Origin: Craspedostauros australis
Lineage: Eukaryota
NCBI GenBank assembly: GCA_030167865.1
Contig: JALAGF010003060.1
Span: 1-36,835, forward strand
Length of the DNA: 36,835 nucleotides
Direction of reading: 5' to 3'
This document shows positions 10,440-34,778 of this stretch, piece by piece; positions within the stretch are counted from its first letter, which is position 1, and every line of letters starts with the position of its first letter. The notes under the pieces are model-generated. The model was not told the origin of the DNA. It saw nothing but the letters and a program-made list of their open reading frames with translations, and did not search any database. The position numbers were made by a program, and so were the translations under genes.

Positions 10440-10623
10440 CTCTGTTTTACAATACTTTGAAACAATGAACCAACACATGCTCGACGTTGCATTGCAGATC
10501 AGTAATTATGATATGATATGTTTCATGTTATATACGACTGCACGTGGCACTACACTACACTTAACTCACAACCATCCTCATTTCTATTATCTGAGACTTC
10601 CTCGTCTACTCCACGACCCTACT

Positions 10624-12669: not shown

Positions 12670-12697
12670 CATCCATCCATCCATCCATCCATCCATC
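12670..12697. repeat. (CATC)7 microsatellite
   Basis: Read directly; lies in the divergent intergenic region between the IGPS-like and LRR genes. (AAGCAAGG)3 is nearby at ~12600-12623. Confidence 0.95.
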
Positions 12698-13485: not shown

Positions 13486-16400
13486 ATGCGAGCTGACTCA
13501 CAAGGCAATAGCCATACCGACGTTGACATTGACATGGAAGGCAACATGGAAGGCAACATCAGCGATGGCTGCCAGATGGAAATGGCACCCACCAGCAGTA
13601 CCAACAGCGATGATTGTTGCGAAGAGCACGTGGAGCAGTGCGGCTATGCAAACAGAACAGCCACAACACCGACAGCAGCAGCAACAACAGCAGCGACAAC
13701 AGCAGCAACAACGGCAGCGACAGCAGAAGGCCACCGTAGGTCTCCAATGAATCATCGAACTCGAACAAGGCCTCGATGTCGCCCGATGCTGAACAGCCTT
13801 GTTGCACTTGTCATCATTGCAACCGCAAACATTCCATGCGGCCTGTTTGGAAAGCAATCGCCATCCATGCTTGTTGCGGCAGCCCACCTCGACGCTGATG
13901 ACGAGCTCGCCATCCTCAACGAGTTCTACGATGCGATGGAGGGCAATCACTGGAGAATAGACGCTGGCTGGAAGAGCGACACTTCCTTCTGCGATTGGTT
14001 TGGTATCACGTGCGCTGGTGCACAGGGCGGCGCGATCACCAAATCCGTGCAAAAAGTCACGCTCAAGGGCAACAACCTGCACGGTCAAATTCCATCGTCC
14101 TTCTGGACGCTACCATCCCTCATCCAGGCCTCGTTCGGCAACAACGCAATTTCTTCGATCGGCCTTGAGGACATCGATCCCTCCGAATTGACGCCGTCAT
14201 CAGGCACCAAATTCTCACCTCTGCAGGGACTCTACTTGCCGCAGAACCAGCTCTCGAACTTCCAGAACATTGGCGCGTTCGCCCCAACCCTCACGCACAT
14301 TAACTTCGACAAGAATCAGCTCACGCAGCCCTTGCCCGACGATCTCTACGACTGCGTGCACCTGCAGAGCATCTACATTGCCTTCAACAAAGTATCCGGC
14401 AGCCTCTCCTCCAAGATTGGCAAGCTCCGGAATCTCGCCGAATGGTACGGCTTCGAAAATGCCATCACGGGCACGCTGCCCACAGAGCTGGGGGAGCTCG
14501 TTTCCATGCAGATACTGGGTCTGGGCAACAACTTCATCCACGGCACGTTGCCGACCCAGATGGAAGGCATGGTCAACCTCCGAGACATCTCCATCCACCA
14601 TGCCGACCGTGACGAACAGGACAAGATTGATCCCAGCGGCAACATGGCAGGTCTCACGGGACCCTTGCTCTCCTTCGGCAACCTGCCCTACCTGGCGCTC
14701 CTCTTCCTCGACGGCAACGCCTTGACGGGAATCATCCCCAACGACTTCCTGCGTCACAACGAGAACACCAACGAACCCGTCTCCATCGGCCTCGCCAACA
14801 ATCGCCTCTCAGGTGCAGTTCCAAAGGCACTCGAACGATTCGCCTCCTTGAGCATCGACCTGGTCGGGAACAAAATCACCTCCATCCCACCCGAGCTTTG
14901 CGAGATCGGTGGATGGATGGGGGGTCTGGTGGAATCGCACGGCTGCGATGCCATCCTGTGTCCGCTAGGCACCTTCCTGGCAGACGAAGGACGCGTCGTG
15001 CGCAGCAAGAAGGAGTGCGAGGATTGTCCTGGATCACCCTACATGGGTGCCATGATTTGCAATTACACCGATACCGGCGGCGATGACACGGATACTGGTG
15101 GAGGTAACGGTGGTGGTAACGGTGGCGGCACCGCCGAGCCTCCCTCCACGCTGGATTACCTCATGGAATTCTACCGCATCATGCATGGTTCTCAATGGGC
15201 CGACAAGGACGGTTGGGAGATCATCGACACCATCATCAACGACGAATACACGTCGGAGCAGATCGACAACCTCAACCTCGATCCCTGCACTTCCAACTGG
15301 TACGGTCTCGAATGCGACGCCAATGGCGACGTCACGGAGATCTCGTTGCCCAAGAACGACATGTTCGGCACCGTCCCGCAATCCATCTTCGCCTTGCCCA
15401 AGTTGAAGAACCTCGACATCTCCAACAACAACATCTTGCTCAAGAACTTCGAGCCTGCCGCGACGCACAACACACCATTAGAGACCATGGTCCTGACCAA
15501 CATCAAGATGGAATCCCTCGACGGCATTGAGAAGCTGAAGAGCACGTTGAGGCTGCTCTACCTGGACGGATGCAACGTCGAAGGCAACATCCCGGACACA
15601 ATCTTTGAACTCTCCGAGCTGCGGCTGCTGCATTTGCAGCATGCCAAGTTTTCGGGCCAATTTCCGACTCGGATCGGGCAACTCAAGCACCTGGAGTTGC
15701 TCAACGTGTACGGCAACAGCTTCACGGGCAACCTGCCAACGGAGCTGGGCGAGCTGACCAAGCTGCAGACCATCGACTTTTCGGAGAACCAATTCACGGG
15801 CGGCATTCCATCGGACCTGCTCACGGAGTGCACCAACTTGGAATCTATCACAATCCACCAAACCAACACGAACAAGTCGCTCAGCGGCAAGCTGCCGTCC
15901 TTCCACCATATGCTGCAGCTGCGAGAGTTGAACCTGGATAACAACGCATTCACGGGCGATATCCCAACCAACTTCCTGGAGGGCATCCCGGACAAGTCCG
16001 AATCCATATTCATCACGTTGATTGGCAACCAGCTCACGGGCGGCGTGCCACCAATACTCGACGACTTTACCCTCCTGACCATCCGCCTGGAGGGAAATCT
16101 CATCACAGCGCTACCACAAGAGCTTTGCGACAACCTCAAGTGGATGCACGGCGAGATTGAAAAGATGCCCGACACTGCGAACAAGTGCGATGCCATCCTA
16201 TGCCCACCCAAAACATGGGCAGAGAATGGCAAGGCTACCTCCACAACCACATGCCAAACCTGTCTCACCAACGAAGACAAGTTCGGTCAAATATCGTGCG
16301 GTGACACGGTCGGCAATATGGAACGGCAAATCTTGGACAGGCTCTACTTCGCGACGGGCGGTCGGTATTGGAACGTCACGCACGACAACTGGGTCCAACC

Positions 16401-19400
16401 CGGTGTGCCCATCTGCCAACGTGAGGGAGTGTCATGCATCGGGAACGGCGGTGACGAAAATGTCGGCGTCGACGAATTGCGGCTGCTTGATTTCGGACTG
16501 CGTGGTACGATTCCATCGGAGATCTGGCTTCTTCCGAACGTCCGCACCTTAGCATTCACAGGGAATGAGGTCGACATCTCCTTCGTCGGCATGGAGAAGG
16601 CCAGCAATCTGCGCGTCTTCAAATGCTCCAAGTGTCATCTGCGCTCGTTGGACGGATTGCGCAATGCGCCATCGCGGCTGGCTGAGATCCATCTGGCTTA
16701 CAACCAGCTGAACGGGCTCATCCCGGAGGACATCTTCCACCTTTCCAACGCTCGCAAACTCTTCCTGAACAACAACCATTTCGAGGGCATCCTCTCCACC
16801 AGCATCGGCAACCTGACGAAGCTGAAGGAGCTTCACTTGCACAGCAACGAGGTGGCCGGAACTTTGCCAACCACTTTGATGAAGCTGGAGGACCTGACAG
16901 TGCTTGACGTGAGCGACAACATGCTCTCTGGCTTCATTCCGACTGAGCTGCAGGAGTTGTCGTACCTTAACAAGCTGCTCTTGGCGCGACAAGCCAGCAA
17001 GGCAAAGTTCCAGGGCCCTCTGCCGTCATTCCTCCACAGCGAAGAGCTAACCCGCGTTGATGTCAGCGGCAATCGATTGGCGGGAGCATTGCCGCCGAAC
17101 TTTCTGAGGGACGTGGACATTTCGGAAGAGATCCGAGTCGACCTATCATCGAACAGCTTCGAGGGAGCCGTACCCGAACAATGGAGCAGAATTCCCAACT
17201 TGATCTTGGACCTATCGGACAATCGGATCTCAGAACTGCCTCCCAAGCTCTGCGAGCAGGCCTCATGGAACAACGGACAAGTCGGATTGTTCGATCCGGC
17301 TTGCAACGCCATCCTTTGTCCGCCAGGAACATTCAACGTCGCAGGTAGAATGACTGGCCCCACTTCCGGCTGCGAAGCTTGCGACGGTGGCGTTGCTGGT
17401 GCACCCTATTTCGGAGCGGTGGAATGCATCGACCCGCAAATCGTGGAAGAGCTGGAAATCATGCAAAAATTCTACAAGGCCAACAATGGAACCAAGTGGC
17501 TGGTCCAGAACAATTGGGTGTCCGACCTACCAGCCTGCGAGTGGTACGGCGTGCATTGCAACGCCAAGGGCTACATCACCGAAGTCAACCTTGAGACCAA
17601 CCTGATCCAAGGAGACGGACTTGGCGATTCGTCGGCGATCCTGACGCTGAAGCATCTGCAGGTACGTTTGTGTACGAGTCCACCACAGCATGTGCGCCTT
17701 GCTCCATTTGCTTCGCCTCGCCTCGTCTTGCTTTGGTTTGATTTACGTTGCAATCTTTTCTTCTGTTGGTCTTCTCGATGGCAAATGACCGATGTGTTTG
17801 CCACGGAGATGGTACGCTGTGTTACTGTTCGTGCTGAAAACGAGTCGGAGTGTGTGGAGGCACATACTCGGTTGCTCCACTTTGCTCTGCCATTCGCCAT
17901 CGCATCTCTCACCAACGCACGTGAATCACTCTTTGTCAAACCGAATGATCATGATCATCATCGGCATCATAAACTATCATTTCCCTCAACGATGACAGGT
18001 GCTGGATCTCAAGGGAAATCCCATCCAGTTGGACCTCAGCCGTATCGTGCCAGACAACAAGTTGGAGTTCTTGCGCCTCTCAGGCACGGGAATGAAGACA
18101 CTGACCGGCGTCTCGCGTGCCAGCAATCTCAAGGCGCTTCACATGACCAACAATAACCTGCAGACACTGCCCAGCGAGATTTTCGAACTCAGCAAACTGG
18201 AGGCATTCTTCGTTTCGTTCAATGCCATCGAAGGACCAATCTCGCCTCGGTTCGGCGAGATGACAAATCTTCGCCAGCTGTACGGATTCGGAAATCTCTT
18301 CACCGGCGTCATCCCGACGGCGTTGACCGGGCTCTCAGAGCTGGTCGAGTTCGTGTTCGCCAAAAATTTGCTCAGTGGTGAGATTCCGCACGAGTTTGGC
18401 TCCATGCAGAAGCTTCAACAATTCTCGATCTACGATCAGGAGGGATACGAGCTCATCACCGGCCCTCTCCCCAGCTTTTCCAACGCTCCAGATTTGTGGT
18501 ACTTGGATATTTCGGACAACGATCTGACAGGCCCCATCCCTGACGACTTCCTCCTGAGTTCCGTCTTTCAGAAAGACAAGATCAGCGTGTACCTGAACAA
18601 CAACGAGCTGACGGGGACAATCCCCCCCAGTCTGATCAAATTCGACGAAATCGATCTCAACCTCTCGGGTAACAGGATCGAGAAGATTCCACCGGAGCTC
18701 TGCGCTCTTGATGCTTGGATGAACGGAAATGTTGATAAGGTCGGTACCTGCAACGCCATTCTGTGCCCGCAAGGAACCTTCAACTCCGAGGGATTCGAAA
18801 CGCCCGGCAGCCCTTGCGTCCCCTGCGTCCATCTGCAAGACGTGCCGTACCTCGGGCAGAATCATTGCGAGAACTTTTCGTCGGAGGGCACCACGTTGGA
18901 TCTTTTGTACGACGCCACTGGCGGAGAGTTTTGGTCACGCAACGAAGGCTGGAAATCCGACGAGCCCATCTGCAGCTGGGAGGACGTATTTTGTGAGGAG
19001 GGTGACAAGCAGGATACATCTGGCATCACGACCATCACCATATCCAAGAATGGACTGGTGGGGACGTTGCCAAGCGAGATCTGGACGCTTCCCACCCTTC
19101 GCACGCTTAGCCTGAAGGGGAATCCGCAGCTTGTGGTCGACTTCGAAGGCATTGAGAAGGCGAAGAATTTGGAAACCCTGTACCTTTCGGAGGTGAGCCT
19201 GCAGTCCGTGGAAGGCATCTCGAAGGCGACGAACTTGAAGGTGTTGCACCTGACAGGCAACGATCTGAACGGCCCGTTCCCAGAGGAGCTGCTGAAGCTT
19301 TCCAACAGCCTCGAGAGTCTGTACCTCGCTTTCAATCTCTTCAACGGACCGATCCCCACCCGCATCGGCGAGATGAGCAAGCTGCAGGCATTCTACGCCT

Positions 19401-20992
19401 ACAACAACGACTTCATCAGCACCATTCCCACGGAGATCGGCAGGCTGTCCAACCTTGAGGAACTTGTGCTAGCGGAGAATATCATCTACGGTGAAATTCC
19501 GACAGAATTGTCCTCCATGCCGAATCTGGAGGTCCTGTCCGTATACCGCTCAAGCAAGTCAGGGCCGCGCTTGACAGGCAGCCTTCCACCCTTGGATCGG
19601 TTGCCCAAGCTGACGCACGCGTTGCTGCATGGCAACGAACTTCGCGGAAGGCTCCCCGACAACTTCCTGGCTGGTTCGCTGTCCGTCGAGGAGGTTCATC
19701 TGCAATCCAACATGCTGACGGGACCAATCCCTCCCATCCTCGACAACGTCCCGTCGCTCTACCTCAACCTCCACGACAACAGGTTCCTCACATTGCCCGA
19801 CGAGTACTGCACGAAATACGATTGGATGGATGGCGCCGTCGGCGACTTCGGCTGTCGCGCCATTCTGTGTCCGCCCGGCGCCGCGAGCGCACTTGGTAAG
19901 TCTGTCAATGACACTCTGGTTTGCCAGAACTGCACCGATCCAAGCCTCGTTCCCTTCTTCGGAAGCACATCGTGCACAGGGCCGCCGGACACCAGATCCA
20001 TCCTCGAGGGTTTCTACCACGATATGAACGGCGATAAGTGGCTGCGATCCGACTTTTGGAAGAGCAACGTGGGCGTTTGCGATTGGTACGGCGTGGCCTG
20101 CATCAACGGTGACGTCGTTTCGATCAACCTCGCCTCGAACAACTTGAAGGGCCTTCCATCTCCCGAGCTGTTCGATCTGCCACAGCTGAAGATTCTGTGG
20201 TTGAACTCCAATCCAATCACCTTCAGTTTTGAGAACATCGGAAGCGCGAGGAAGCTTGAAGACATCCGCTTGGACAACACGCAGCTGCACTCGATGCACG
20301 GCATCGGGGCTGGTGAGTCGCTTGTCAACATCGACGTCAGCTTCACCTCCATCCGTGGCAGCTTCCCGAACGAGCTTCTCGGTCTGACGAATCTACGCAC
20401 GTTGGCCATGCGCAACAACGCTCTGTCAGGATCATTGCCAGCCGATATGTCTGATCTTCGGTACCTGATATCCATGTCGTTGGACTCGAACAAGCTGACA
20501 GGCACCCTGCCTGCCTTCGACAATCTGCACTTCCTAAGAGAGATCCGTCTGCACAACAACCTGCTGACGGGTGACATTTCCAAGAGGTTCTTGCACAAAT
20601 TGAATCACGGGGATTCGATCGTCGCCAACCTCGCCAGCAACCGGCTGACCGGCGTCATCCCAGAGGAACTCGCACGCTTCGACAACCTGTCGCTGTACCT
20701 TCGCGACAACAAGATTCTGGGCATCCCGCTGAGCGTCTGCGAGAAGAGCCAATGGCTGGGCGGATCCGTCGGACAGGTCGGCTGCGATGCCATCCTGTGC
20801 CCGCCAGGCAGGGGGAATCAGTACGGCCGCGAAACTGACAACGTGGCGTGCGGGAAGTGCTCCTCCGCGCGGTACTACGGGTCGACGGACTGCTACTTCG
20901 ACGCATCCGCCGCACCAGCAGGACTGTCAGCCCGATTCGGAATGGCTCTGGGGTGTGTGGTTTCCATGCTGATGATCTGCGCTTTCGCTTAG
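13486..20992 (+). CDS. Giant secreted, probably GPI-anchored leucine-rich-repeat protein with six tandem cap-LRR-Cys modules; exons 13486-17661 and 17999-20992 (up to 2389 aa; true start may be ATG 13747 or 13786)
   Basis: Plant-type LRR consensus (LxxLxLxxNxLxGxIPxxxGxL) occurs throughout. There are six N-caps (FY..xxG..W.....W.....C.W.G..C) and six C-caps (C.AILCP.G......G......C..C). A signal-peptide-like MLNSLVALVIIATANI lies near the start. The C-terminus has small residues then a hydrophobic tail (DASAAPAGLSARFGMALGCVVSMLMICAFA*), with no cytosolic domain. One GT-AG intron joins the two track ORFs in frame. Confidence 0.92.
17662..17998 (+). other. LRR gene intron (337 bp, phase 0)
   Basis: CTG CAG|GTACGT ... 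GACAG|GTG CTG GAT CTC AAG restores the LRR unit LKHLQ|VLDLKGN. Confidence 0.92.
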
Positions 20993-21995
20993 ATCTACAG
21001 TGCATTGCATGCCTACGGGTATCCATGGAAAGGTCGCCGTCATGGGATTGCCTGCGATTTGTCCAGGATCGAGACGAGGATTCCACAAGTGCGAGTACGT
21101 ACGAACGACATGAGGATCAATCATACGTATCCTCTTTGAGTGTGTAGATTAGGACGCGGCAAGCACCCATCGTGTAAGGTGCAATTAGTGCCCACATTTT
21201 GAAATCCACTCGCGCCTCTTACGAAAAGTAGTACCAGCGCGCACTCACTTCAGCCTGAGGGTACACGCATAATCTATAAAGCAACAGCATTGCACATATA
21301 CGCATGACTCGCAGAGTGCTCCGATGAAAATGTGTGCGCTCCGGAGAGAGATCTGCTGATTGACGATGATGCTGGTTTGCTTTGATGCCAATGGCGGAGA
21401 GTTGCGCTGTGGGTGAAGATCGTCCAGCACGAGGAGCCGCACGCACACGACCAAACGGAATGTAACCATAACAGACCTGTGACTGAAACTTATACGGGTT
21501 TAAAATGACTTCAATTTTGGAATTTCGTCGAACTCCTCTCGATTTGACAAAGCGCAACAAGAAGAACACCAACAGCACGAACAAAACCTGCGTGGCATCG
21601 GTTCCGCGACTGTTGGTGGCAAGTGGTTGCGTTGGGCGTTGACGATCATTGATTGCGAAAACCTGAGGAAGCGCATCGGTGACGAGGCCTTGGTGTGGAG
21701 TCTGTTGGTTGTAAGACGAAGAAGAACGACAAGAAGAAGGAGACGGCACCAGGACAGAGAACGGAGCAACGGCAGTCGCAGAGAGCGACAAGGAGATAAA
21801 GATAGATTGTCGTAGAGTAGAGTAGGGCAGAGTAGAGGAGGGCAGAGTGGAGAGGAGAGCAGAGTAGATTCTCCACAGACTCTATTGAAGAGTGCAGCAT
21901 TGCCACTCAGCAAGATATTAAACGAGTGAATCGGATTGGGAGGAGGATATCATCCATCCATCAAAGCAGCAGCAGCAGCAGCAAGGATTGTCACG

Positions 21996-24900
21996 ATGGA
22001 CAGCGGTCACCACGAGGTTCCGACGGCCTTTGCGGAGAACGGCCATGGCCACGGACCGCAGCATCGCTTCGGCGGCCTTGACCTGAATCTCGACTCCGCC
22101 TTGGACTTTGGCAGCAGTCTCAGCAGCAACCTCGCCAGCAAGATTGGCAATGCCCCATCGCTGCCACAGAAGGAGCGACTCGCGGCGGCCGCCAGCTGGG
22201 CATCGGAATGGATCCAGCAGCACTCGCGAACCAGACCACGGCTGCGCAAGGATCATCCCAATGCTGGCCGAACGGCCTACTCGCGACAGCGCGCCGTGCC
22301 GCAGAACATCGATCTGATCTACGTCACGGACCGTCTCATCTCCGCATCGGCGCCATCCAAGCCCTTGCATGCGACGTATCACGACACGGGACGCGATGGC
22401 GAAGACAGCGAGCACGAATTGAAGCCGGCCCAGTTCGCTTCGATGGCCATGCACGTTGCCGCAACCAGTCGGCCCATCGTCATGTCGTCTTCCGCGCCGA
22501 AGGCGGACCGACGATCGGTGCAGGATACGGAACGAGCAACGGCAGACCCACCATCTGCGGAAGGTACAACGCCAGCGACTCAAACAGCGACAGAGCCGAT
22601 CATGGAGAATCCTCAGGAGGGTGGTGACGATCATTCCGTGCAAGAACGACCAGCAACACACCATTCAGCGCAAGCCGAAGGATCATCTTGCGATGCATCA
22701 TCTCATGATAAGGACGAAACGAAGGGACCGTCAGATCCTGTTTTCATCCCCGTGGCGATGCCATTGCCAGCGCTACCAAACGAAACCATAGAGCGCGGTT
22801 TCTCGATGCAGATTCAAGCAGAGGCCATCAAGCTACCTTTGCCTGTCACACCAGATTCATCTATGATAGAAGACGATAACTCGAAGGAAGCATCTGCGAC
22901 ACCTTCGACCTCGCAGCCGGACAGTTCACCGTCACTCTCAGGCATCGAGATCGTGTCCAGCGTTCCAAGCAACGACGTTGAAAGTGATTGCGCCAACAGT
23001 CAAGCCGTCTCCAACAACTCGGAAGATGCAAGTCCAGTTCCAGCGCCTTTGCAAACGGATGTGTCCACATCATCCCGATCCAAATCCACCGAGTCGTCCA
23101 ACAACATGGAAAACAGCGCACAACAAATCATGGATGCGCCAACCAGTCCAGCGCCCCCGATGCAACATATGGCCAAATATCCTCCCGCACATCAGGATTT
23201 TGCTTTGGACGATCTGCTTGAAACTGCGAAGGCAACGTCTTTGCCAACGACGCATGGCCGTCAAAATGAAGCAGCCATGTATCCTCCTCAAACTGATCAG
23301 CATGCAACAGCGTGCGAGGATCAGCTCAGACTGGCAAAGGAAGCTGCCTTGCCAGCGCTGCATGAGTCAAGTCATCATGGCAGCAGCAAAGCAGCGGAAG
23401 GAGGACAACCGCAACAAGAGAATGGAAACGAAATCCAACCCTCATCATCTGCTACCATCGATTCTATCAAGTCGCAACCACCGACGCCGTCGCAGCCTTC
23501 CCATATCACAGACCCCAAAGATCAGAACTCCTCCACCGCAAAGAAGCCACGGCCCAACACCAGCACACCTTCTGCTCTGCCGCATAGAATATTCAATTCA
23601 GCAGCCAACATGTCGTCATTTCTGGAGCAGCAGCATGGTCTGGGACATTTCATGGCACTTGGACTCACGAACGACCCTCCGGATGACAGATTCCTCACCA
23701 TCTGGCGTCGGCAGGTCGTGCACGTCGGGTGGGCATCGCCATGTCCGGAGCGCAGCGAGATACCCACCATCCCGCACCTCCTCAAGATCTGCTGGATGAT
23801 CCACGCCTACCTATCGTCCAACCGCAACAACGTCATGACGATCTACTGCGCGAACGGAAAGACACGAACGTCCATCGTCCTCGGCTGCTACCTCAAATTC
23901 TGCGGACGCATGCAAACAACGATGGATGGATTCATCCATTCGTTGCGACAGCGTGGAGTCGAGGATCCGGTCCATCGCGTCGTTCCTCACCTGCCGCCAT
24001 CGTTGCTGCTCTTCATGCAGCACTTTGACGAAACCATCAACATGGGTTGCGTCCTCAACCGCAAACCGCTCCTCCTGCGGGCCATTGCCATCCAGGGCGT
24101 TCCCGTGGAAGACAAGCCGTGCTTGGATATTTGGGATTCGTCGCAAGATGATGCGCAACCAGGCAAGCACGTCTACTCGTCGCATCCAGAAATGTGGACC
24201 AAAGCAGATGCCGATTCATCCAATGCAAACGAACCCGCGACGGATCAAAATGAGGGTAGCAATGACAAAGCTCGTGCAAATACAAACGGAATTACAAGCA
24301 TAGATGTCAAAAACAATGCCAATATCAGCAGCAGCAACACCAGCAACAAGCCAAAGCGAACGGAACCCACATCACAGTGGGCCGACGAAGAAGGGTTCTA
24401 CAAAGTCAACAAGGTGGTGGAAGGCGATTTTGTACTTTTGTGCCGCTTCGGTGGCGACTACGCCAAGGAAACGACCATCCACGACCCCAGCAAGATCCTC
24501 TTCCGGTACGCATCGACCACTGCCTACCTGGCTGGCGGCGGCCCGCTCGAGCTGTCATCGCAGCATGTGGATTTGATGAAACGCTATCGAACGTCCCTCC
24601 AAAACGATGACTTCCTCATCACCTTCCTGTGGGAAGCCCATTGGGAGACGAAGTTGAATCACAACAACGACATTTCCGATGCACTGCAGCAGCGATTGCG
24701 AACCGATTCCGATCGACTTCTGCCCACCGCAGGTTCTCGCGTCTTTGATCGCGATGATCCCAGAACGATCGAGGAAGGTTGGAAGTTGATCTTCCGCCAT
24801 CACTGCGCTCGTCCCGAGACCATCGATCATGCTCGATTTGTGCGGTACTGTCCTCGCTACGCCAGCTGTCCCAAGCAAGTCTTATCCATCTGTTTGCAGC

Positions 24901-27900
24901 TGGCCAACTTTGACCTCGAGCTGGCTTCGCGTGCCCTGCAGTCGCAGAACTGGCGCGTCTTTGATTGGAATTCAATGACCAGCACGAGAGCGTCGTTGAC
25001 TCAAGGAGGTGATCAAATCGCCGACCACGATGCAAGGAACGAAGAGAAAGACGCTGCGCCATTTGATAATGATCGCGAAGGTGGCAAACCAACCGCCGAC
25101 CCTACCGCAAACGGCAACACCACTCAAGACGATGATCAGGCCAAGCCAGCCAGTCAGCCAATGAACGATGACATCTTCGCACTGCTGGATCAGGTCAATG
25201 CAGAGCTCGGCATTGATGGTGGCCATAGCCAAAGTGGGGAGGCCGCAGTAGAAGATACAGCAACCTCCAGCGCAGCAGGGTCAAAATCTCTCACAATTCG
25301 TGATCAACATAATGACGTACAGCGGTTTACGTTGTGCCTCCCGCCGATGCACTATCCCCAGGCAGGTGATATCGTTGGCGCCTTCGGGCCATACCACAAA
25401 CAGATGCAGCGGCCAGAATATGACAACCTTCAAATTGACAATGGGGACGCTCATGATCAGCCGCAGCTCCCGTTCTTTTCGAGACGACACCCCAACATGT
25501 TCCCTGCGATTTACCTGCAGCAACCAGACTCTCAGGAACGCACAGATCCCGACCTTAACAACCACATCCCGCGGTACAACGCAGACGAAGAAACCGCGAT
25601 TGACATCTTCATGAAGATCAATCACACGGGAGTATCCTTCGACGAAATCCGCGACATGATCCAGGAATCGCGCAAGTGGACTGGGTATGACATACTCGAA
25701 CCCGATCCAATGGAAGAAGAGGAGGAGGGAGAAGCCGACCCGACCGAGGAGGAAGCAACCGGCAACGCAGCGAAGTCTGCAAACAGCATGAACAAGGAGG
25801 CCAAGAAAAGTCAGCAAAAGAAATGGGAAGATGCCAAGAAAGCAGAAGCGAAAGAAAAGGAAGAGAAAAAGAAGCAGGAGGCAGATGCGAAGCAAAAGAA
25901 GGAGGCAGAGGAGAAAGCCAAGGCTAAGCCAGCCGAGGAAGGAGAGAAGAAAGAAGGAGAAGGCGAGGACGAGAAAAGTGCAACCGGTGACGATGTGCCG
26001 CTCAAGGACGATCCAGAATATGCCAAGTACTTCAAGATGCTCAAGATGGGAATGCAAAAGGAGCAAGTTATGCATGCCTTCCAACGAGACGGCAAGGATC
26101 CAAAAGTGCTGGATATGGATCCAAACAAAAGCCTCAAGTCTCAGCTGCCGAAGGATGACGTTCCAATCAAGGACGACCCCGATTACGAGAAGTACTTCAA
26201 GATGCTCAAGATGGGATTGCCGATCGGAGCAGTCAAGAATGCGCTCTCGCGAGACGGCAAAGACCCAAGCGTCATGGACCTTGACCCGAACAAGAGTCTG
26301 AAATCCCAACGCAAGCCAGCGGCTGCCACCGGCGGTGACGATGAAGATGACGGCCCCGCTCTCAAGGATGATCCAGAATATGCGAAGTACTTCAAGATGC
26401 TTGGCATGGGCCTTCCGAAGGGCGCCGTTCAGAACGCCCTCACCAGAGACGGCAAGGACCCTTCCATCATGGATCTGGATCCCAACAAGAGCGTCAAATC
26501 GCAGCTCAAGAAGGACGACGAAGCAGACACGGGGCCACCTCTGAAGGATGACCCAGAATACGCCAAATACTTCAAGATGCTTGGCATGGGCCTTCCGAAG
26601 GGTGCCGTTCAGAACGCCCTCACTAGAGACGGCAAAGATCCTTCCATCATGGACCTGGATCCCAACAAGAGCGTCAAATCCCAGATGGGTGGAAGCGAAG
26701 AAAAGGACACTGGCATCCCCCTCAAGGACGACCCCGACTACACCAAGTACTTCAAGATGCTCACCATGGGACTGCCCATGGGCGCGGTGAAGAATGCGCT
26801 GGAACGAGATGGCAAGAATGCTGCCGTCATGGATATGGATCCGAGCAAATCGGTCGCGTTCCAGCTCGCGAAGAAGGGATCAGGCGCGGCAAAGAAACCC
26901 TCGAAGAAGAAGAAACGGGTGCGACGTAAGAAGATCTACTGGACGCCAATCGACGAGAACAAGATCGAGGAGGATTCCATGTGGAATATCGTGCGTGGCA
27001 AATTCCGCATGAACGAGCTGTCGTACGATGCGAAGGAGTTCGAGGATCTGTTCACCGAGTCCGCCGATCCCGGACAAAAGAAGAAGAAGAAAGCCAGCAG
27101 CTCCTCCGCCAAGAAGAGCGTCCAGGTGATTGATGGCAAGCGCTCGATGAACGGTGGCATCATCCTTGCTCGATTGAAGATGGATTACACGAAGATATCG
27201 CAAATCGTGGACAAGATGTACGTATGGATTGGCAACGTTGTATGGTTTGCATTTCGTCGCTTCAAGCACCATTCATGCAACAACATCTCTGCAACAACAC
27301 CAAGCAACACAAACCTGACCACTCTCGTTCCCACTTCACGTGCATGTGCTACTTCACCGAATACTTCCACTCATCAATTTTTCGCGCCGGCTGACGCGAA
27401 ACATGCCATGCATGGTCTCCTGTTTCGATCCTTCATCTCTCTCTCTCACACACACGGCCGACTTGTTACACTTGTTCAGGGAGCACGGCAAGTTCGATGC
27501 GACCCAACTCAAAGCACTCAAGGAATTCCTCGCAGATGCAGACGAACGCCGTGGGCTGGTGGCGTACATGAAGAAGGGCGATTCATCTGAAGAAGCAAAG
27601 GCAAAGGCGATGGCCGATCTCAGCGAGGCTGAGAAGTACATGGTGACCATGATGGTGGTGAAGGACCCAGGGAAGAAGTTCGATGCCATGCTCTTCAGGA
27701 CCATCTTCAAATCGAGGTTCGAGGAGATGAAGACTGACATCAAGACGCTCAATCAGGCCTGTGACGAGGTGCGATCCTCGCAACGGCTGAGGAAACTGAT
27801 GGCCATGATCCTCACTGTTGTGAATGAAATCAACACTGGTGGTGAAGGAAAGATGGCCATCGGTTTCACGTTGGATGCGCTACTCAAGCTCAACGAGGCA

Positions 27901-30900
27901 AAGGCATTTGACAAGAAGACCAGCGTCTTGCACTACCTCGCAAAGCTTGTGAAGAAGAATGACATCGAGCTCTTGCGCTTCGACTCAGATTTGAAGAACG
28001 TCATCGCAGCCGAGAACGTGGTGATGGATGGACTGAGCGCTGATGTCAAGCTGTTGCTAGAAGATCTCGGTCCTGTGCACGAAACGGTCAAGGAGGAGGC
28101 AGACCGGCTGGAAAAGACTGGCGAACTGCGTCCGATGTCACTAGGCGAGCTCAAGGAACAAGTGACTGTCGTCCAGAACGTGGAGGGCGTGCAGCAATTC
28201 AACAAGGTCGATCACAAGTCGGGTCGTACCTCCATGGAACGGTTCACGGTCAACGCACAGACAGCTGCGGAACAAGCAGCTGACTCGATCCAGAAGGTCA
28301 AGAAGAAGTATCAGAAGTTGCTGGGATACTTTGGTGAAGACGACAAGATGCCATCAACAGACTTCTTCGGCACACTGAGGAGATTCATGACCGCATGGCA
28401 ACAGGCGATCGAACAAGTCGAAGCGATTGAGAAAGCAGCTGTAAGTTTTGGTCGGGGTGCATTGGATACATTGGATGGACTCTTGTTGATTTGGATGCGT
28501 GCGTAGATGTGCATTGGACTTGTGCTTGCGCCTTCATATTTGGATAGCTCCAGGGAGCATGTTGAATACAGTCACGGGACATGGGAAGTGTGCCAAGTTG
28601 AAGATTTATGCACATTACGGCTGAACACCCACCAACTCACCCAATTTTGACCAACTAATCACGCGCACATATGTGCACCTCGCTGCATGCCTTTCTTTAC
28701 TGCACCGAATTGCAGGCCAAGGAGAAGAAGAAAGCTGAGAAACGAGCTGCCAAAGAGGCTGCGAAAGCGGCGAAAGCTGCAGGCAAGGGAACGAAACCAG
28801 ACAAGGCGTCCACGGCGAAAAGTGCACCGATGGATCCCAAAGCTGCGCTCGCTGCAGCCATCGTCGCAAAGGGCAAGGGCGGCGGGCCATCAGATAAGAA
28901 GCAGGCGGCCGCCAAGCCCCAGGGAATCGGTGCTCTTGCCGCAGCCGCCGCTCTCAAGAAGAAACCAAAGAGAGATGAGAAGGCAATAGGCGACTCGAAA
29001 CCACAAGGTATTGGTGCTCTCGCGGCCGCAGCTGCACTCAAGAAGAGTTCGAGCAAAGGCAGCGACAAACCCAAGGAGCGCTCACGATCTGCGCTGGAGG
29101 ATGCGTTGATTGGACACAAGGCAGCAGATGAACCAACTGGCATCGCAGCATTCGCGTCGGCTGCCGCCGTTCTCAAGGCAAAGAGCACCCAGTACGATGA
29201 AAAGGGCGAGCTCATTTCCAACCGCGACGACGAGAACGTGTCGGAAAGCGTGAAATCCTTCGCAGCCAAGGCAGCGGCGTACAGGAAGAAACGTGGAAAG
29301 AAGGACGACAAGGATGGCGACACGGGCAGCAGCAGGCATAGCCGAACAGCGTTTGACTTGGATGATGACATGCCAGATTCTCAGCACAAGAACCTTAGGT
29401 TTGCTGGATCCATGCATGGCACGCCAGGCAGAAGAAATGAAGCACCTGGTACGTCGAATGCAGATCACGCCGCCAATACAGCAGAATCCAAATCGACCCC
29501 ATCCCTGTCAACGCCGTCCCGAAACAGAGACGACGATGGCGCCCGACAAGGCACGCCAGAGGGATCGAAATTCCTATCATCCGCGGCGCGATACCGTCGT
29601 AAGAAGTCGCAGCGAAAGCTCAGCGTCGGAGGCGATGGAATTGGCAACGACGATGTCGCCAACGCTGCAAAGGAGGCAACCAAACAGCAGCAGCAGCAAA
29701 TCGACGAGGCTCATGCTGGTGGCAAGTCAAATGCAAAGGCTCCGGGTGCGCCTGCAGCTCTGACAGAGGCAGTCAGCTCACCCAAAATGACTGTCGATGA
29801 ACCCATCTCAGAGCTGATTTCACCGCTGAGATCACCTTCGCGCGCTGTCGAGTCCAGGAAACTGGCCGGCTCATCAAACGCCTCCCAGAATGGGAACGGA
29901 GCTATCATCGCCAATAGTCCGGTGGATGGACTCGCCAGCCTTCCAACTCTGCAGAAGCCGAGCAAGGGAGGTCTCGATTTTCCCGTCCAATCAGCAAAGA
30001 GCAAGAAGGGACCTTCGCTTTCCTCCTTCCTTGCGCAAAATTCCAGGCCGAGGCACAAGAGTTCCGGTGGTTCCAACGAATCGCCCACCTCAGCCAATGG
30101 TCAAGAACCTGGACCGCGGCCCAAACCCCTCGCGGTCTTCTTGAACCAAGCGCAGGATGTCGACGACGATGCGTCGTTGGTGTCGTACGATCCGAGATTC
30201 AAGAATTTCGATGATTCTTCAGTCGCCAACTTTACCGTATCCACGGAGACGGACGAAAACCGAGGAAAGGCCGGTGGTCAGAATTCATCGGCGTGGAAGC
30301 AGGGCGATACGATCGCCAACTGGAGCACCTGGGCTACGCAGCTGGTCAACGATTCCGACACTCAAAGCGTTGCCAACTTCGAGGCAGGCCGAGACCTTGC
30401 CGACCCCAACGACTTCGATGACGATTCGACGATTGCCACAACGACGACCTACATGGACGACATGAACATGGACGGCGAAAGCAGCTACAATTACCGCCAA
30501 ACGCAGTATCAATACAGCGGGCAGAATGAGTATGCTGGCCAACAGAGTGTTGGGATTTCCGACTATTTCCAACCACAGCCACTGCCTCCAAGCAACGACG
30601 ATCCGTACGCCTACGACGATGGCAGGAACAGCGAACCAACGACACCATCGGGAAACATCCACAAGATTGCGAAGTCCATCTTGCAGGATGACACATCCTC
30701 ACAGGGAAGCGGACCACCGATCGTCACACCTGCCAAGGTCGCAGCGTCCATCCTGTTCACCGATTCCCCAGCCAGCTCCACAGGTTACGCGCCTGGGCAG
30801 GAAGACCTCGCGGGAGCATACCAAGGCGACGAAGAACAGGAACAATACACATCGATGGAAGCCGCGGCTGTTTATTACGGAGACGCCGGGTTGGACGCCG

Positions 30901-31076
30901 GACTTTCGTTTGGCGCGCCCGCAAATCCTGGCCTCGACGATGGTCTCATGGCGTTCGGTGAAACGACCGACATGGACGCCGTCGGCGCGGGAATTGACAT
31001 GCCGTCCTTGGCGGATGCCTCGTCATCCCAGCACCAAGGGGGCGACAAGAAGAAGAGCTGGCTTCCTTGGGGATAG
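21996..31076 (+). CDS. Formin (PTEN-like phosphatase - C2 - UBA/CUE-like - 5x CCDC53-like repeats - FH2 - long disordered tail); exons 21996-27217, 27480-28440, 28716-31076; ~2847 aa
   Basis: FH2 motifs: KKIYW...SMW (lasso), EFEDLF, VIDGKRSMNGGIILARLK, LSEAEKYM, ILTVVNEIN...AIGFTLDALLKLNEAK...SVLHYL, YFGED...FFGTLRRF. PTEN-like motifs: IDLIYVTDRLIS, SFLEQQH, IYCANGKTRTSIVLGCYL. C2-like motifs: KPLLLRAIAIQGVP, VEGDFVLLC, ILFRY. The track start at 21936 is TTG; the first ATG is 21996. Two GT-AG introns join three track ORFs in frame. Confidence 0.92.
25989..26867 (+). repeat. Five tandem ~55-65 aa coding repeats within the formin (PLKDDPEYAKYFKMLxMGLPxGAVxNALxRDGKDPSxMDLDPNKS)
   Basis: Visible directly in protein and DNA. 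Units start at ~25989, 26154, 26349, 26526 and 26706. Units 3 and 4 have identical core peptides at a 180-bp period, with mostly synonymous differences. Confidence 0.95.
27218..27479 (+). other. Formin intron 1 (262 bp, phase 2)
   Basis: AAG AT|GTACGT ... TTCAG|G GAG CAC gives IVDKMEHGKFDATQL, which continues FH2. Confidence 0.88.
28441..28715 (+). other. Formin intron 2 (275 bp, phase 0)
   Basis: GCA GCT|GTAAGT ... CTAAT branch-like site (~28655) ... TGCAG|GCC AAG GAG gives EKAAAKEKKK, which continues the post-FH2 helix. Confidence 0.85.
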
Positions 31077-32070
31077 AATCATGCATGATTGTATGAATAC
31101 GAGCGGTGGTAAATGTTGGAACTGGCGACAAGCAAAAATGCCAACAAGTGCTCCACCAGTGGAATGGTACGCGCACTCTTACGCCTGAGCGAAAATAGCA
31201 CACCCAAGTCCGCGTCGCATCCGCGTCGCATCCGCGATCCTAAGATAAACTTCACGAGGCTTTTACATATACTTCCTGTAGATATATGTGGAAGAATTAC
31301 ATTATTATACCTTAGATTGGATGGGTTAGGAGGTCATGAAGGTACCTATTCTGTCGTGTTGTATCGTGCTTTAGATTCAGCTTTTGGCATGCGGCATGGG
31401 AAAGGCTCGTCACTGGCTCCAAACTTGGTGTTGACGAGCGGCGAAAATGTCCTCCTGAGGAGACACCGACATTAACAGCGGTTATGGAGGCGTTAAATGG
31501 GGCACTTGAGGTGATAACATGCGTATCAGCTAAAGGCCATGGGGAGTGCAAAGCACCGTGTCCTGTGCCCATACCATTCTTAGTTTACCCTTCAATTCCA
31601 TGTCTTTTCCCACCAGGATGGTTTGCTTTTTCCTCTCTCAGACGGACTTCAGCAAGGCGGCCAAAGCTGTTGGCAAGTTCTGTGCACAGATGACTCTTGC
31701 ACTGTATGATACAACATAATACAATACAGGGTACTTACTTAAAAAAAAGACTGATCATATCTGAAAATGAAGTATGTAGATGATTGGTATTGTGTGTGCT
31801 CGAGTAGATGATGATTAAGTCAATGAAAGCTGGCCCTATTCTGATCTGTTCAAGTCAGAATTGTGAGCATGAAGAGTGCAATGCAAGATGATGATGAAGA
31901 AAAGAGATTGCACAAGTTGCTCACAGAAATACTGCTGTGAAATGATGCCTTGCACTGTTGGATTCACATGTGAGAGGAAGTGCATGTTTGCAAGTGCAGA
32001 GGTAAAAGCAAGATCAGATGGCACGTTCTGGTCCACGATGACCAGTACCGCCATAATTGTGAAGCTGTGC

Positions 32071-32202
32071 AATTGAGGACTTCTTATTCAGATATATTGG
32101 ATGAACCAATGCATCTGAATTGCAAGGTGTCAACAAGATGGTGTGGAATTGAGGAATCAATATTCAGATATATTGGATGAACCAATTTATCTGAATTGCA
32201 AG
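32071..32202. repeat. Two direct copies of a 56-bp unit with internal palindrome, separated by 20 bp
   Basis: 32071-32126 aattgaggacttcttattcagatatattggatgaaccaatgcatctgaattgcaag; 32147-32202 aattgaggaatcaatattcagatatattggatgaaccaatttatctgaattgcaag. Confidence 0.92.
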
Positions 32203-32329
32203 CCAGTCTGCAACATGAGAAAGCGATCACATACTGGGGTTTGTGGTAATTTTAGATATCAAGACATTACAATTCATCACACACGAAGAACTCGTGACTG
32301 AATCAGTATTCGTCCTGTGGTACACAAAT

Positions 32330-33870
32330 ACTACACGACTCATTTGCATGGCACCAATGACGAGTGTAGTTGGAGTGTTGGATGTGTTATTAACTCTCAC
32401 AGCTCTGCACTGATCCTCATGGTTCAGTGTTCTGAGGACAGACCCACTGTTTTTTCTACTCCGCTTTTGAACTGCTGTTGCTTTGAAATGTATTACATCA
32501 CAACACTCAGCATTCTGTTGAAGTTGCAATCAAGTGGTTGCAGCTGTTGTTGTTGGAATTTGCTGTTGGATTCCCTGTCATCATTAAAGCAGGTTGGATC
32601 TCCAATGCATTGCTGTAGTGATGCTGTTGCTGATGGTCAAAAAGGGAATCGAAGAGGTTTGCAATTCAAAAGATCTGAAGAGAATAGCACTCAGTGTGTT
32701 TGAATCAGATCAATCATGGTACAGATACAGGCAATGATTCATTGATGAAGACAAAGAGGAGGAGGAGGTCATTGTAGTCATTGAGGTTGGAATGTTGTGT
32801 GATGCTATTTTCGAGAATCAATTTGGGACATCGGACGTTTGGAGATAGTCTGTCCCTGACTGAATTCCAACTATTGCCGATATTTCCATTCTGTTTGTTC
32901 GCTTCACGTTCTGTACGTGCACTAGGCTGCGAATTGACACGTATCATGACGAATTGGACTATGCCTAGTTCATACAATGCACCATACGACCATTCAGTAT
33001 AGAATCGTCCTGCTCTACATATTCTTCTCCCCAGATGAATCCAATTCTTTTCGCTGGTCACATCCAAACAGAGAAGGCAGCCAAAGGGGAGCCATGTGCA
33101 TCGAGGAATGATACGCAGCAGAGTAGGTATTATATGCTCTATCATTTCGCCTGCGAGAGCAGAGACACACTTCCCCCTGTCTTGCCAAGAAATGGCTGAG
33201 ACCGAAGTAACCGGTGGTTCATTGTCACGATGCTTCAAGTACGAACGTGCCTCGAGTATTCCCACGTGTGTGTATGAGTATGTGGGGACGATGATTGGCT
33301 GTGCTTCTTCGTCGTCATTCGTGAAGAGAGCAGGATGCGTAGTCGTGATCACTCCAATCGAATCAAGAAGAATAAGGAGTCATTGAGTGTCTACTACACG
33401 AATACGAGACAAGGATCCCGCGTTGATGGAACAGTCATACTCCTTGCACAAGGAAACACCTGGCATCGCCTTCCACTCTTAGCCTCTCGTATTATTCTTG
33501 CTCTTGTCCTTGCTCTTGCTCGTGACATACGACTGCGAACAAAGGCATTGCGAAAGAGAGTGAAAGTTGTCATGGTCCACCATTCGTGGTTGTATACCTT
33601 GACCAAGAGAATGAGTGTGATACGCCACGATTTGCAGAAGTGTTTCGTGGGAGAGATCCTTTTCGTTCTATTCTATTATACTTCGGACTGTGGAGGTATC
33701 GAGCCGCATAAGTCTCCGCTCCTCCTTGTGTGTTATGTGCAGCATCGGCGGCTGAACTGTGTTTGGAGTGGAACGCCAAAAACGTCTTCTGTTGGGTCGC
33801 CCCGAACATCGCCCATGCATTTTTCCGTGTTTCTCATTTGGAAGAAACAGTCAGAATTGTCAAGAGCGTG
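32330..33870 (-). pseudogene. Possible decayed reading frame (pseudogene or transposon ORF relic) in a CpG-depleted island
   Basis: The frame of ORF 32714-33352 continues upstream to ~33850 through only three stops (TGA ~33380, TAA ~33480, TAG ~33670). Downstream at ~32330-32640 a coiled-coil-like peptide (SLQQCIGD...KFQQQQLQPLDCNFNRMLSVVM*YISKQQQF) is interrupted by stops. No recognisable domain; boundaries are approximate. Confidence 0.3.
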
Positions 33871-34778
33871 CTTTCTCCTTCTTGGATGTTGTGCGCCAAA
33901 CAATTGAGCACACAGCCACCTCGTAGAACTCTCAAGGACCACTGAAGATTGCTACCTCTCAACAACCAACATGAATGGGAGGCATGTCGCCTATCAAGGA
34001 CGTGTTGTGCAGAGTCATCGTCCTCTTCCTATGCACCATACCATACTTCTCCACATGAAAGTACCCATACTCACTTTGAACGATCTTGCATCCCTTTTCA
34101 CATCTCATAACATCTCATAAAAACAACTGTCTCACAACACCAACAGCGACAACAACGATAACTTATAGAAGTCGTACAACACCTAAGTGCAAGCAAAACA
34201 CAACCACAGCCATCTCGAAACACACCACCAACTGATCGAAAACCGAAACAGAACGAAGTCAACGGTACGTTCATTTGTGTTCATCATGGCAGCGGCCATT
34301 GTCAACACCATGGCACAGGGCAGCAGATGCCAACGCGCCATTGTGCCTGACTTGAAGAGTCTTTTCCGGGTCCAGCTTGCCAGCCACCTACACACTCTTG
34401 GAATCGTCTTCTGCTCTACCTGCGAGCTGTTCTCATGGTGGTCCACCGGTGTCACAATGTGGCAAAGGCATGCCATGCCACTCTACTTTACCACCACGTT
34501 CGACAACAGCAGACTTCGTTCTCATTCTCCCTCATTCTCACATACTCGCTCATCACACGCTCATCACATTGTCCACTTGTTCGTCCATCCCAAACCACGA
34601 CGCTTCTCTCAACAAACAAATCGCTGGACGGATCGCATGTTGACTCCTATCTGATCTGGCTACGGTCAATGATGTGGTTCGTGTCCACCTATTCTTCGCA
34701 TGGTACAACACGTCTGCGACCCATCTGCATCTGCGTACGCACTGTTTCGTTTCATGCAGATAACGACGCACACTGACA

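Follow-up and report, generated by a model that had tools for sequence, protein, structure and literature searches.

A Craspedostauros australis formin carries five WASHC3-like repeats, and no polyproline tract, directly before FH2

Background

Delivery of actin by FH1 and profilin is the textbook account of fast elongation by formins. Other actin assembly machines make use of WH2 motifs, which occur in tandem in nucleators such as Spire and Cobl and as WH2/DAD motifs in the tails of formins such as INF2 and FMNL3. WASHC3 (CCDC53) is a small stand-alone protein that is assembled with WASH1, FAM21, SWIP and strumpellin.

FH1-FH2 is paired with varied N-termini in other eukaryotes (Grunt et al. 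2008, PMC2386819). The PTEN-formins of heterokonts and the class II formins of plants have a PTEN-like region at the N-terminus and FH2 at the C-terminus, and published surveys label the heterokont members "PTP-C2-FH1-FH2" (Grunt et al. 2008, PMC2386819; Pruyne 2017, PMC5628938); a WASHC3-like repeat goes unmentioned in the accessible portions of both surveys. ForC of Dictyostelium is an FH2 protein that lacks a proline-rich FH1, and according to Rivero et al. (2005, PMC555941) it does not bind profilin. One passage of PMC11420354 reports that profilins and Arp2/3 are missing from many diatoms, which backs what an earlier note on this DNA, made from the sequence alone, had said about the absence of Arp2/3 from diatoms.

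Results

The formin gene occupies positions 21996-31076 on the forward strand of the window (the whole stretch of DNA that was analysed, 36,835 nucleotides), and spliced translation of its three exons gives a product of 2847 residues. The order of domains in the product is a PTEN-like N-terminal region, five tandem repeats of about 60 residues, and FH2. The start codon at 21996, inferred from the sequence, is the earliest ATG of the single ORF (21930-27590) that contains exon 1.

21996..27217, + strand: exon 1, with a low-complexity N-terminus, the PTEN-like region, a charged stretch, the five repeats and the first ~97 residues of FH2
27218..27479, + strand: intron 1, GT...AG with the donor GT at 27218, 262 nt, interrupting FH2; read from the sequence
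27480..28440, + strand: exon 2, with the remainder of FH2 (Pfam FH2 E 1.7e-47)
28441..28715, + strand: intron 2, GTAAGT...AG, 275 nt; read from the sequence
28716..31076, + strand: exon 3 (ORF 28659-31076), with a low-complexity C-terminal tail of ~786 residues and the stop

The join of 27217 to 27480 keeps the frame and the Pfam FH2 match continuous (profile 4-100, then 111-372), and the coding sequence after splicing is 8544 nt with one stop, which is terminal. The tail encoded by exon 3 matches no Pfam family at E<=0.1 and no WH2 at E<=1, and where a homologue has a tail at all, which few do, its conservation is weak.

The protein is a formin, with PF02181 matched above the gathering score over profile positions 4-372. 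The part of FH2 in exon 1 matches at E 5.1e-9 (36.2 bits) and the part in exon 2 scores 162.8 bits against a cut-off of 34.8. FH2 starts (KKIYW) 17 residues past the fifth repeat.

26877..26927, + strand: linker between array and FH2, short and basic; from the translation
26928..28401, + strand: FH2, split by intron 1; Pfam PF02181 on both exon parts

Nowhere in the spliced product do three or more prolines stand in a row, and its proline-richest 12-residue stretch, with five prolines, lies in the far C-terminal tail. Proline-rich tracts before FH2 are thus absent and the protein is not a canonical FH1-FH2 formin; the claim of the earlier note that a polyproline FH1 is missing holds for the full product.

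The position before FH2 is filled by five repeats that share one open frame, with a charged stretch immediately 5' of them.

25800..25980, + strand: Lys/Glu-rich charged stretch; from the translation, no family matched
25995-26156, + strand: repeat 1, Pfam CCDC53 E 4.3e-9, profile 109-147; divergent, with MGMQKEQV replacing MGLPxGAV
26160-26321, + strand: repeat 2, Pfam CCDC53 E 3.4e-11
26355-26516, + strand: repeat 3, Pfam CCDC53 E 1.7e-11
26535-26696, + strand: repeat 4, Pfam CCDC53 E 2.1e-11
26715-26876, + strand: repeat 5, Pfam CCDC53 E 5.5e-9; adjoins FH2; a conserved variant ending in AFQ rather than KSQ

Every repeat matches PF10152 (CCDC53) singly, at 37-45 bits against a cut-off of 24.6 bits and from profile position 109 or 110 to the end at 147, and the whole exon matches in five stretches (E 1.2e-39). 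The earlier note had read the array as five WASHC3/CCDC53-like repeats directly before FH2 and had proposed profile searches for CCDC53 and FH2; both families are found above cut-off and the reading is confirmed repeat by repeat. In Pfam scans, PF10152 positions 1-90 are unmatched by any part of the protein, the best stretch being 91-147, and the matches in relatives begin at position 50 or later. No repeat matches WH2 (PF02205) at E<=0.1.

Tandem Repeats Finder gives the array a period of 180 nt, with copies 3 and 4 92% alike in DNA; these two repeats are 91% identical in protein. Each copy has a mini-domain of ~45 residues within a period of ~61, and short linkers, acidic and with much Gly/Ala, connect one copy to the next; the linkers have a median length of 7 residues and are rich in D, E, G and A. 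Many charged positions of the repeat are invariant or near-invariant. The repeats also keep their place in the array: across homologues the closest match of a first repeat is another first repeat in 65 of 104 cases, and for last repeats the closest match from another protein is again a last one in 88 of 110.

The likeness to WASHC3 covers the last ~39 of the 147 profile positions, matched above the gathering score. The repeats differ from WASHC3 in having no match to positions 1-108, which presumably include the coiled coil that joins WASHC3 to WASH1 and FAM21, in standing as five tandem copies inside a formin of 2847 residues, and in continuing for ~14 more conserved residues (ending DLDPxKS..SQ) past the end of the WASHC3 profile. 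Judged by these matches, the formin shares a C-terminal mini-domain with WASHC3 and is not its orthologue.

The PTEN-like region lies upstream of the array.

23673..24965, + strand: PTEN-like phosphatase region, with the CX5R loop YCANGKTR at ~23844-23867; from phmmer, Foldseek and conservation in homologues

No Pfam match reached threshold here. With phmmer the region matches the auxilin PTEN-like domain 3n0a (E 0.001), and Foldseek, run with an AF2 model of it, places auxilin (E 2.4e-3), Ci-VSP and PTEN in the top rows; the model is poor, with a pLDDT of 55 overall, and is confident at residues 31-125 and 355-425 alone. The region is conserved across 98 homologues. The conserved part that follows the phosphatase region is probably a C2 domain and a helical domain, and the putative C2 part is conserved in homologues and has an AF2 pLDDT below 50. 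Relative to HCxxGxxR the loop has lost the His and kept the Arg, as Grunt et al. describe for stramenopiles in the accessible part of their survey (PMC2386819). By sequence and model, the region appears to be a weak match to the phosphatase of class II-like PTEN-formins, which the protein resembles in the order of its ends and from which it differs in that the FH1 slot holds five WASHC3-like repeats without polyproline. The earlier note was silent on the PTEN-type identity of this formin.

The same layout is found in relatives. Among the 120 best relatives and the window protein, 111 have an FH2 match, and in 105 of these all detected repeats (3-11) lie 5' of FH2 and end 15-35 residues before it. 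A run of at least four prolines within 400 residues upstream of FH2 is present in one of the 111, and the runs of at least five prolines, in eight proteins, are more than 500 residues distant or C-terminal to FH2.

A search with the FH2 part of exon 2 gave 4277 matches at E<=1e-3 among 1.84 billion representatives. Among the best 150 of these, 63 have at least 250 residues upstream, and repeats precede FH2 in 62 of the 63 (two were placed by repeat and FH2 coordinates, the scripted FH2 start being wrong); the remaining one, a class II formin from a plant, has a canonical polyproline FH1. A labyrinthulid member used as the query brought back 63 proteins, and PF10152 and PF02181 are both present in 61. 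One to eleven repeats precede FH2 in all 48 of this set that have a scorable FH2 start, and these span labyrinthulids, oomycetes, pelagophytes, xanthophytes and diatoms.

The N-termini before the repeats vary, and may be PTEN-like, Drf_GBD/Drf_FH3 with or without PH, or ubiquitin and WW. The repeat-FH2 unit is a conserved cassette across stramenopiles, so the guess that this architecture exists in other stramenopile annotations proves correct (105/111 and 48/48 proteins). Phaeodactylum tricornutum has a two-repeat paralogue, XP_002180363.1. The relatives P0268, P0292 and P0294 have one P7 tract N-terminal to their two repeats, and in P0408, P0411 and P0419 tracts of P4-5 follow the last repeat and precede FH2. 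Pfam WH2 matches are present C-terminal of FH2 in P0107 and P0377, and some relatives have added ubiquitin, WW or UBA domains. Ala-rich tail motifs were considered as a partner of the array and dropped, being present in just 5 of 84 tail-bearing relatives. In an FH2 FastTree of 76 sequences, the window protein groups with pennate-diatom PTEN-type members; the tree has no outgroup, since the 85% coverage filter removed the plant formin as well as members from oomycetes and those of Diaphanous type. The six rows of this set that have zero repeats are five N-terminally truncated fragments and P0215, which has a different upstream repeat.

AF2 predicts three short helices per repeat, with a pLDDT of about 88-90 for repeats 3 and 4, and low-confidence linkers. 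Foldseek with a two-repeat model gave nothing against the PDB at E<=0.001, and the wide VIA-align search gave a best Z of 3.5, with generic HTH/three-helix rows and no known actin-binding fold. The array compared by phmmer with PDB sequences gave chance-level rows only (E 0.29 or worse). ESM Atlas returned PF10152 clusters alone, and excluding PF10152 and PF02181 left no usable rows. Complex prediction for the last two repeats with the FH2 of the homologue P0011 scored 0.00 in two runs, made without controls, a score that counts neither for nor against a contact.

Discussion

The array resembles an FH1 in lying directly N-terminal of FH2, in having a variable number of units on a flexible chain and in being reused as part of a cassette, and differs in that its units are predicted folded helical domains rather than polyproline tracts. 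If the repeats bind actin, they would also resemble WH2 arrays, as multivalent short monomer-binding units beside an actin assembly machine, but the predicted form of each is a compact bundle of three helices, unlike the single helix plus LKKV of WH2. The absence of a proline-rich FH1 is shared with ForC, a single exception whose FH1 slot has no content described in the accessible text (Rivero et al. 2005, PMC555941), whereas here a conserved array is present across stramenopiles.

We tentatively favour a reading, at somewhat less than even chances, in which the array, being multivalent, takes the place of FH1 without need of profilin and concentrates actin at the barbed end to which FH2 is bound. 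Both arrays of the FH2 dimer would then act in the manner of an FH1. Each mini-domain would reversibly bind polymerisation-competent actin, either G-actin directly or actin brought by some carrier that is not polyproline-bound profilin, and the flexible tether would raise the local concentration of actin units at the FH2-capped barbed end, so that elongation would be sped up without polyproline and would rise with the number of repeats. On the same reasoning, the single copy that ends the flexible tail of WASHC3 may play a similar part next to the site of WASH/Arp2/3 nucleation.

Replacement of FH1 is consistent with the position of the array, its variation in copy number and its behaviour as a cassette. 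The array fills the FH1 position, 15-35 residues before FH2 in 105/111 proteins, proline runs near FH2 are nearly absent (1/111), and repeats precede FH2 in 62/63 of the scorable best FH2 relatives, all of which suggests an FH1-like role. The recurrence of the cassette behind varied N-termini, as for FH1-FH2 elsewhere, points the same way, and the variable copy number, flexible linkers and independent helical units of the AF2 model suggest an FH1-like layout. The strong, position-specific conservation of the repeats argues for a conserved ligand. The sole other home of the domain, by the Pfam family definition, is a subunit of an actin-nucleation machine, which also favours an actin-related role. 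Since many diatoms lack profilins according to the same passage of PMC11420354, a polyproline FH1 would be without its ligand there.

Some of the evidence goes against the FH1-like role. The fold searches found no known actin-binding fold, and the six relatives that combine repeats with short proline tracts argue against strict replacement. Oomycetes possess profilin and Arp2/3 and carry the cassette as well, so the loss of profilin is not the sole driver. In the WASH-complex literature searched, as far as its text was accessible, no function of the WASHC3 C-terminal motif was found, and the analogy to WASH therefore weighs little. The wider proposal, that stramenopile formins elongate filaments without polyproline or profilin, that the array is a novel FH1-equivalent module which binds actin monomers directly and that the WASHC3 tail would then be an unrecognised actin-handling element of the WASH complex in animals and amoebae, is somewhat unlikely.

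It is also possible, though somewhat unlikely, that the array is a multivalent dock for a partner other than actin, such as a membrane or organelle adaptor, a regulator, or ubiquitin bound through a UBA-like surface, and that it positions or switches the formin instead of feeding it monomers. WASHC3, the other home of the domain, is a scaffold subunit, and ubiquitin, WW or UBA domains do occur in some relatives. Weak, sub-threshold summed Pfam matches to UBA/UBA_2 lie inside the arrays of P0015 and P0049, and the MG(L/F)-loop and second helix of the repeat align to the true UBA of P0096. The hhalign probability for that alignment, made with 401 repeat units against this one UBA, is only 6%, however, and UBA is absent from the 50 listed VIA rows, all at Z<=3.5. 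A targeting module would not need a spacing of 15-35 residues from FH2 in nearly every member, and the cassette persists behind N-termini that already have targeting domains (PTEN, GBD/FH3, PH).

Binding to the side of F-actin is improbable, but would turn the array into a tether to the formin's own filament, for processivity or bundling rather than monomer capture. Small three-helix domains such as the villin headpiece can bind F-actin, multivalency fits such a tether, and position and actin context speak for it just as they do for monomer delivery; a headpiece-like match is absent from the fold and family searches.

An intramolecular role for the array, by an autoinhibitory or dimer-zipping contact with FH2, the tail or itself, is less probable again. 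The last repeat, adjoining FH2, is a conserved variant distinct from the others (the 88/110 noted above), and there are Diaphanous-type relatives, in which intramolecular regulation is the rule. A copy number of 1-11 would be odd for a fixed contact, and the scarcity of Ala-rich motifs among tailed relatives goes against a contact with the tail. A gene-model artefact, with two genes fused or a proline-rich FH1 exon missed, the latter having been named beforehand as a possible refutation, is scarcely credible: the start codon and both introns are read from the sequence, but array and FH2 start lie within one unbroken ORF, no exon of the model has a proline run of three or more, and the same junction recurs in hundreds of independent gene calls and in three MMETSP transcriptome-derived homologues (P0088, P0100 and P0373), where the repeats join FH2 directly and no part of the protein has a proline run of four or more; it is very unlikely that a proline-rich exon was overlooked between array and FH2.

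Conclusions

The pair of PF10152 and PF02181 is annotated automatically in databases, and the literature search found no paper that describes CCDC53/WASHC3 repeats with FH2 in formins. A folded, repeated module in the FH1 slot, present in diatoms, oomycete pathogens of plants and animals, brown and golden algae, and labyrinthulids, corrects the label "PTP-C2-FH1-FH2" that publications have given to these formins of heterokonts. Diatom actin is linked to silica-wall patterning and gliding, and this link makes the cell biology accessible in transformable diatom species. If the array feeds actin to FH2, it would be a second solution to the problem that FH1 solves and a compact tool for the engineering of actin assembly; if its role is different, the formins that have it would rely on FH2 alone, which is also informative. 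In both cases the finding offers a first way into what the conserved motif at the C-terminus of WASHC3 does.

The formin gene and its repeat array

The window formin, a PTEN-type formin, is found in a long + strand ORF (21930-27590) that holds its first exon. A three-exon model was read from the sequence, including the start codon and both introns:

21996-27217, + strand: exon 1, from the first ATG of the ORF (putative start codon)
25995-26876, + strand: five tandem repeats, matched unit by unit by Pfam PF10152
27218-27479, + strand: predicted intron 1 (GT...AG)
27480-28440, + strand: exon 2, as read from the sequence
28441-28715, + strand: predicted intron 2 (GTAAGT...AG)
28716-31076, + strand: exon 3, as read from the sequence

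The joined CDS of 8544 nt has a single terminal stop and encodes 2847 aa. The PF02181-type FH2 match is continuous after the intron 1 splice, with profile positions 4-100 in exon 1 (E 5.1e-9) and 111-372 in exon 2 (E 1.7e-47). The earlier note had placed five CCDC53/WASHC3-like repeats before FH2, and they are there at the stated coordinates, far beyond chance: PF10152 (CCDC53, "Subunit CCDC53 of WASH complex") is matched by each unit singly with 37-45 bits (cut-off 24.6 bits; E-values 5.5e-9 to 1.7e-11), always at profile positions 109/110-147 of 147, and by exon 1 as a whole in five stretches (E 1.2e-39). It had also seen no polyproline FH1, and indeed the 2847-aa product nowhere has three prolines in a row; the start of FH2 is at nt 26928, with 17 residues between it and the last unit. 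Tandem Repeats Finder gives a DNA period of 180 nt, with copies 3 vs 4 matching at 92%; as protein, these two share 91% identity.

The region upstream of the array is conserved in 98 fetched homologues and contains a CX5R loop (YCANGKTR). It matches the auxilin PTEN-like domain by phmmer (E 0.001). AlphaFold2 modelled 441 residues, poorly on the whole (pLDDT 55) but with confidence across residues 31-125, and Foldseek ranks auxilin (E 2.4e-3), Ci-VSP and PTEN highest for this partly confident model. This fits the passages on stramenopile PTEN formins in Grunt et al. 2008 (PMC2386819), where the PTEN domain of diatom and Phytophthora formins retains the Arg of HCxxGxxR and the His is absent. 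A putative C2 part follows the PTEN-like region in the window formin, where the model stays below pLDDT 50. A helical domain after the PTEN/C2-like region (24730-24965, aa ~915-985; model residues 355-425, pLDDT about 72-91) may be UBA-like, as low-ranked Foldseek rows to Ube2K suggest.

The 786-aa tail C-terminal of FH2 matches no Pfam family at E<=0.1. Right after FH2 (28716-29250, aa ~2062-2240) it has three to four short Ala-rich amphipathic motifs with basic ends, such as GIGALAAAAALKK, present twice. These appear WH2-like by eye alone, with no Pfam WH2 match at E<=1. Of 84 tail-bearing relatives, only 5 have a motif of this kind.

The neighbouring ORFs at 1954-20992 include no actin-related genes:

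1954-6054, + strand: ankyrin-repeat protein
6457-8664, - strand: Miro-like GTPase with EF hands
10624-12174, - strand: indole-3-glycerol-phosphate synthase
13459-18156, + strand: very large leucine-rich-repeat ORF
17996-20992, + strand: very large leucine-rich-repeat ORF

Just downstream of the gene (31000-34000) the GC content is 0.42-0.48, vs 0.50-0.61 elsewhere, and the ORFs there have no Pfam match.

Distribution of repeat-FH2 formins

A search with the array and the start of FH2 gave 484 matching proteins at E<=1e-3. PF10152 is present in all 120 that were listed, and PF02181 in 110 of them; the other ten stop at or before the FH2 start and are mostly on short contigs. An HMM made from the window's five repeats served to count repeats in the 111 proteins with an FH2 match (the 110 relatives and the window formin). 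In 105 of the 111, every detected repeat (3-11 per protein) is upstream of FH2, and the array stops 15-35 aa short of it; in the remaining six the scripted FH2 start was misplaced. A run of at least four prolines within 400 aa upstream of FH2 occurs in only one of the 111, and the runs of at least five, present in eight proteins, are every one far from FH2. The median repeat period is 61 aa, and the linkers between units (median 7 aa) are rich in D, E, G and A.

The exon 2 piece of FH2, searched against 1.84 billion cluster representatives, had 4277 matches at E<=1e-3 and 145 at E<=1e-30. Among the best 150 of the 4277, 63 extend for 250 aa or more upstream of FH2. Repeats before FH2 were scored in 60 of these, and the homologues P0263 and P0318 were added by coordinates, with two repeats just before the true FH2; the only one left, from Arabis alpina, is a plant class II formin whose FH1 is of the classical polyproline type. 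A large two-repeat sub-class is a second diatom paralogue that includes Phaeodactylum tricornutum XP_002180363.1 and proteins of Epithemia and Nitzschia. FH2 begins HRRARLHWK in this class (the P0247 cluster, P0265, P0350), and three members (P0268, P0292, P0294) have a single PPPPPPP tract ahead of repeat 1 that may be an FH1 relic.

A third search, started from a labyrinthulid member (Hondaea, P0108), found 63 proteins, 61 with both Pfam families. Every named source is a stramenopile: Hondaea, Mucochytrium, Aureococcus, Chrysophaeum, Tribonema, Ectocarpus, diatoms, five Phytophthora species including P. infestans T30-4, Nothophytophthora, Globisporangium and Aphanomyces. The FH2 start could be scored in 48 of 51 proteins examined, and all 48 have 1-11 repeats ahead of it, at a gap of 19-80 aa (238 aa in a single case). 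Together with the first search, these 48 bear out the suggestion that similar architectures exist in other stramenopile annotations.

The N-termini vary while the repeat-FH2 unit is constant. Diaphanous GBD and/or FH3 domains are found in five proteins (P0387, P0393, P0398, P0405, P0411; one also with PH), the named ones being from Aphanomyces and Aureococcus, and one Chrysophaeum protein has a ubiquitin and WW N-terminus. Diatom members carry a PTEN-like region; in Phytophthora, one protein bears the source name "Tensin phosphatase". Grunt 2008 (PMC2386819) describes FH1-FH2 as a core unit that behaves likewise in other eukaryotes.

Several variations were seen among the relatives. In other diatoms (fragments P0133, P0138, P0141, P0142, P0146, P0150-P0155 and others) an intron seems to interrupt every repeat at one and the same position, the gene calls reading ...KYFKMLKM, then non-coding text, and resuming at GLPxGAV; the window array has no intron. 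P0377 has five repeats, FH2 and then, on the opposite side of FH2 from the repeats, a C-terminal module of nine PPPP tracts (25-aa period) and Pfam WH2 matches (E 5e-11). P0215 is an FH2 relative that has, in place of the repeats, a different duplicated unit of ~45 aa within the 189 aa ahead of FH2.

Nature of the repeat

AlphaFold2 on two repeats (30-row alignment) gave a mean pLDDT of 82, with cores at about 88-92 and linkers at about 59-61. Each unit is predicted to form three short helices, plus a short helix within the conserved trailing segment. Fold searches with this model gave no informative match, and nothing was found for the array among PDB sequences or for the repeats in the ESM Atlas outside PF10152. 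The M-G-L/F loop and weak UBA matches, summed over the array in two relatives, hint at a UBA-like repeat, a reading that lacks statistical support; hhalign of the repeat alignment against one true UBA gave a probability of 6%.

Conservation of the repeats is high and position-specific, with many charged positions invariant or almost so. When a last repeat is compared with the repeats of other proteins, its nearest neighbour is also a last one in 88 of 110 cases; for first repeats the like holds in 65 of 104. The array is therefore old, with some recent internal duplication. Its relation to WASHC3 is limited to the last ~39 profile positions; profile positions 1-90 have no match in the window protein, and the formin repeat has about 14 extra conserved residues past the end of the profile. 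What the two have in common is thus a C-terminal mini-domain, and the window protein is no WASHC3 orthologue. The portions of the literature covered say nothing about what the C-terminal motif does in WASHC3.

Possible function of the array

The array fills the FH1 slot, varies in copy number and stays tied to FH2 in several formin architectures; its units are predicted to fold independently, joined by flexible linkers. The earlier note had proposed that it may replace FH1, delivering actin or recruiting partners. The architectural part of this proposal is settled, and the functional part is tentative. On the preferred reading, which has somewhat less than an even chance of being right, the array would take the place of FH1: it would capture actin able to polymerise, directly or via some carrier, and hold it close to the FH2-bound barbed end. 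The setting agrees with this: many diatoms are reported to lack profilins and Arp2/3 (PMC11420354). Against it, the repeats resemble no known actin-binding fold in the fold searches, short proline tracts occur alongside them in seven relatives, and the cassette is also found in oomycetes, which have profilin and Arp2/3.

The array may instead be a docking platform for another partner, which is unlikely but deserves consideration. Binding to the side of F-actin is improbable, and a role as an intramolecular regulator or zipper is distinctly improbable. An artefact of the gene model can be dismissed as almost certainly wrong.

The CCDC53-FH2 domain pair is already auto-annotated in public records, one JGI name being "Subunit CCDC53 of WASH complex/Formin Homology 2 Domain", and no paper describing the pairing was found in the literature. 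Heterokont PTEN-formins are given as PTP-C2-FH1-FH2 (Pruyne 2017, PMC5628938), and Stramenopila were scored FH1-positive by visual inspection (Grunt 2008, PMC2386819); the portions of these two surveys covered here do not mention the repeat domain. What is new is a conserved folded array that occupies the FH1 slot in formins across the stramenopiles, where it would serve, on the tentatively preferred reading, as a substitute for FH1.
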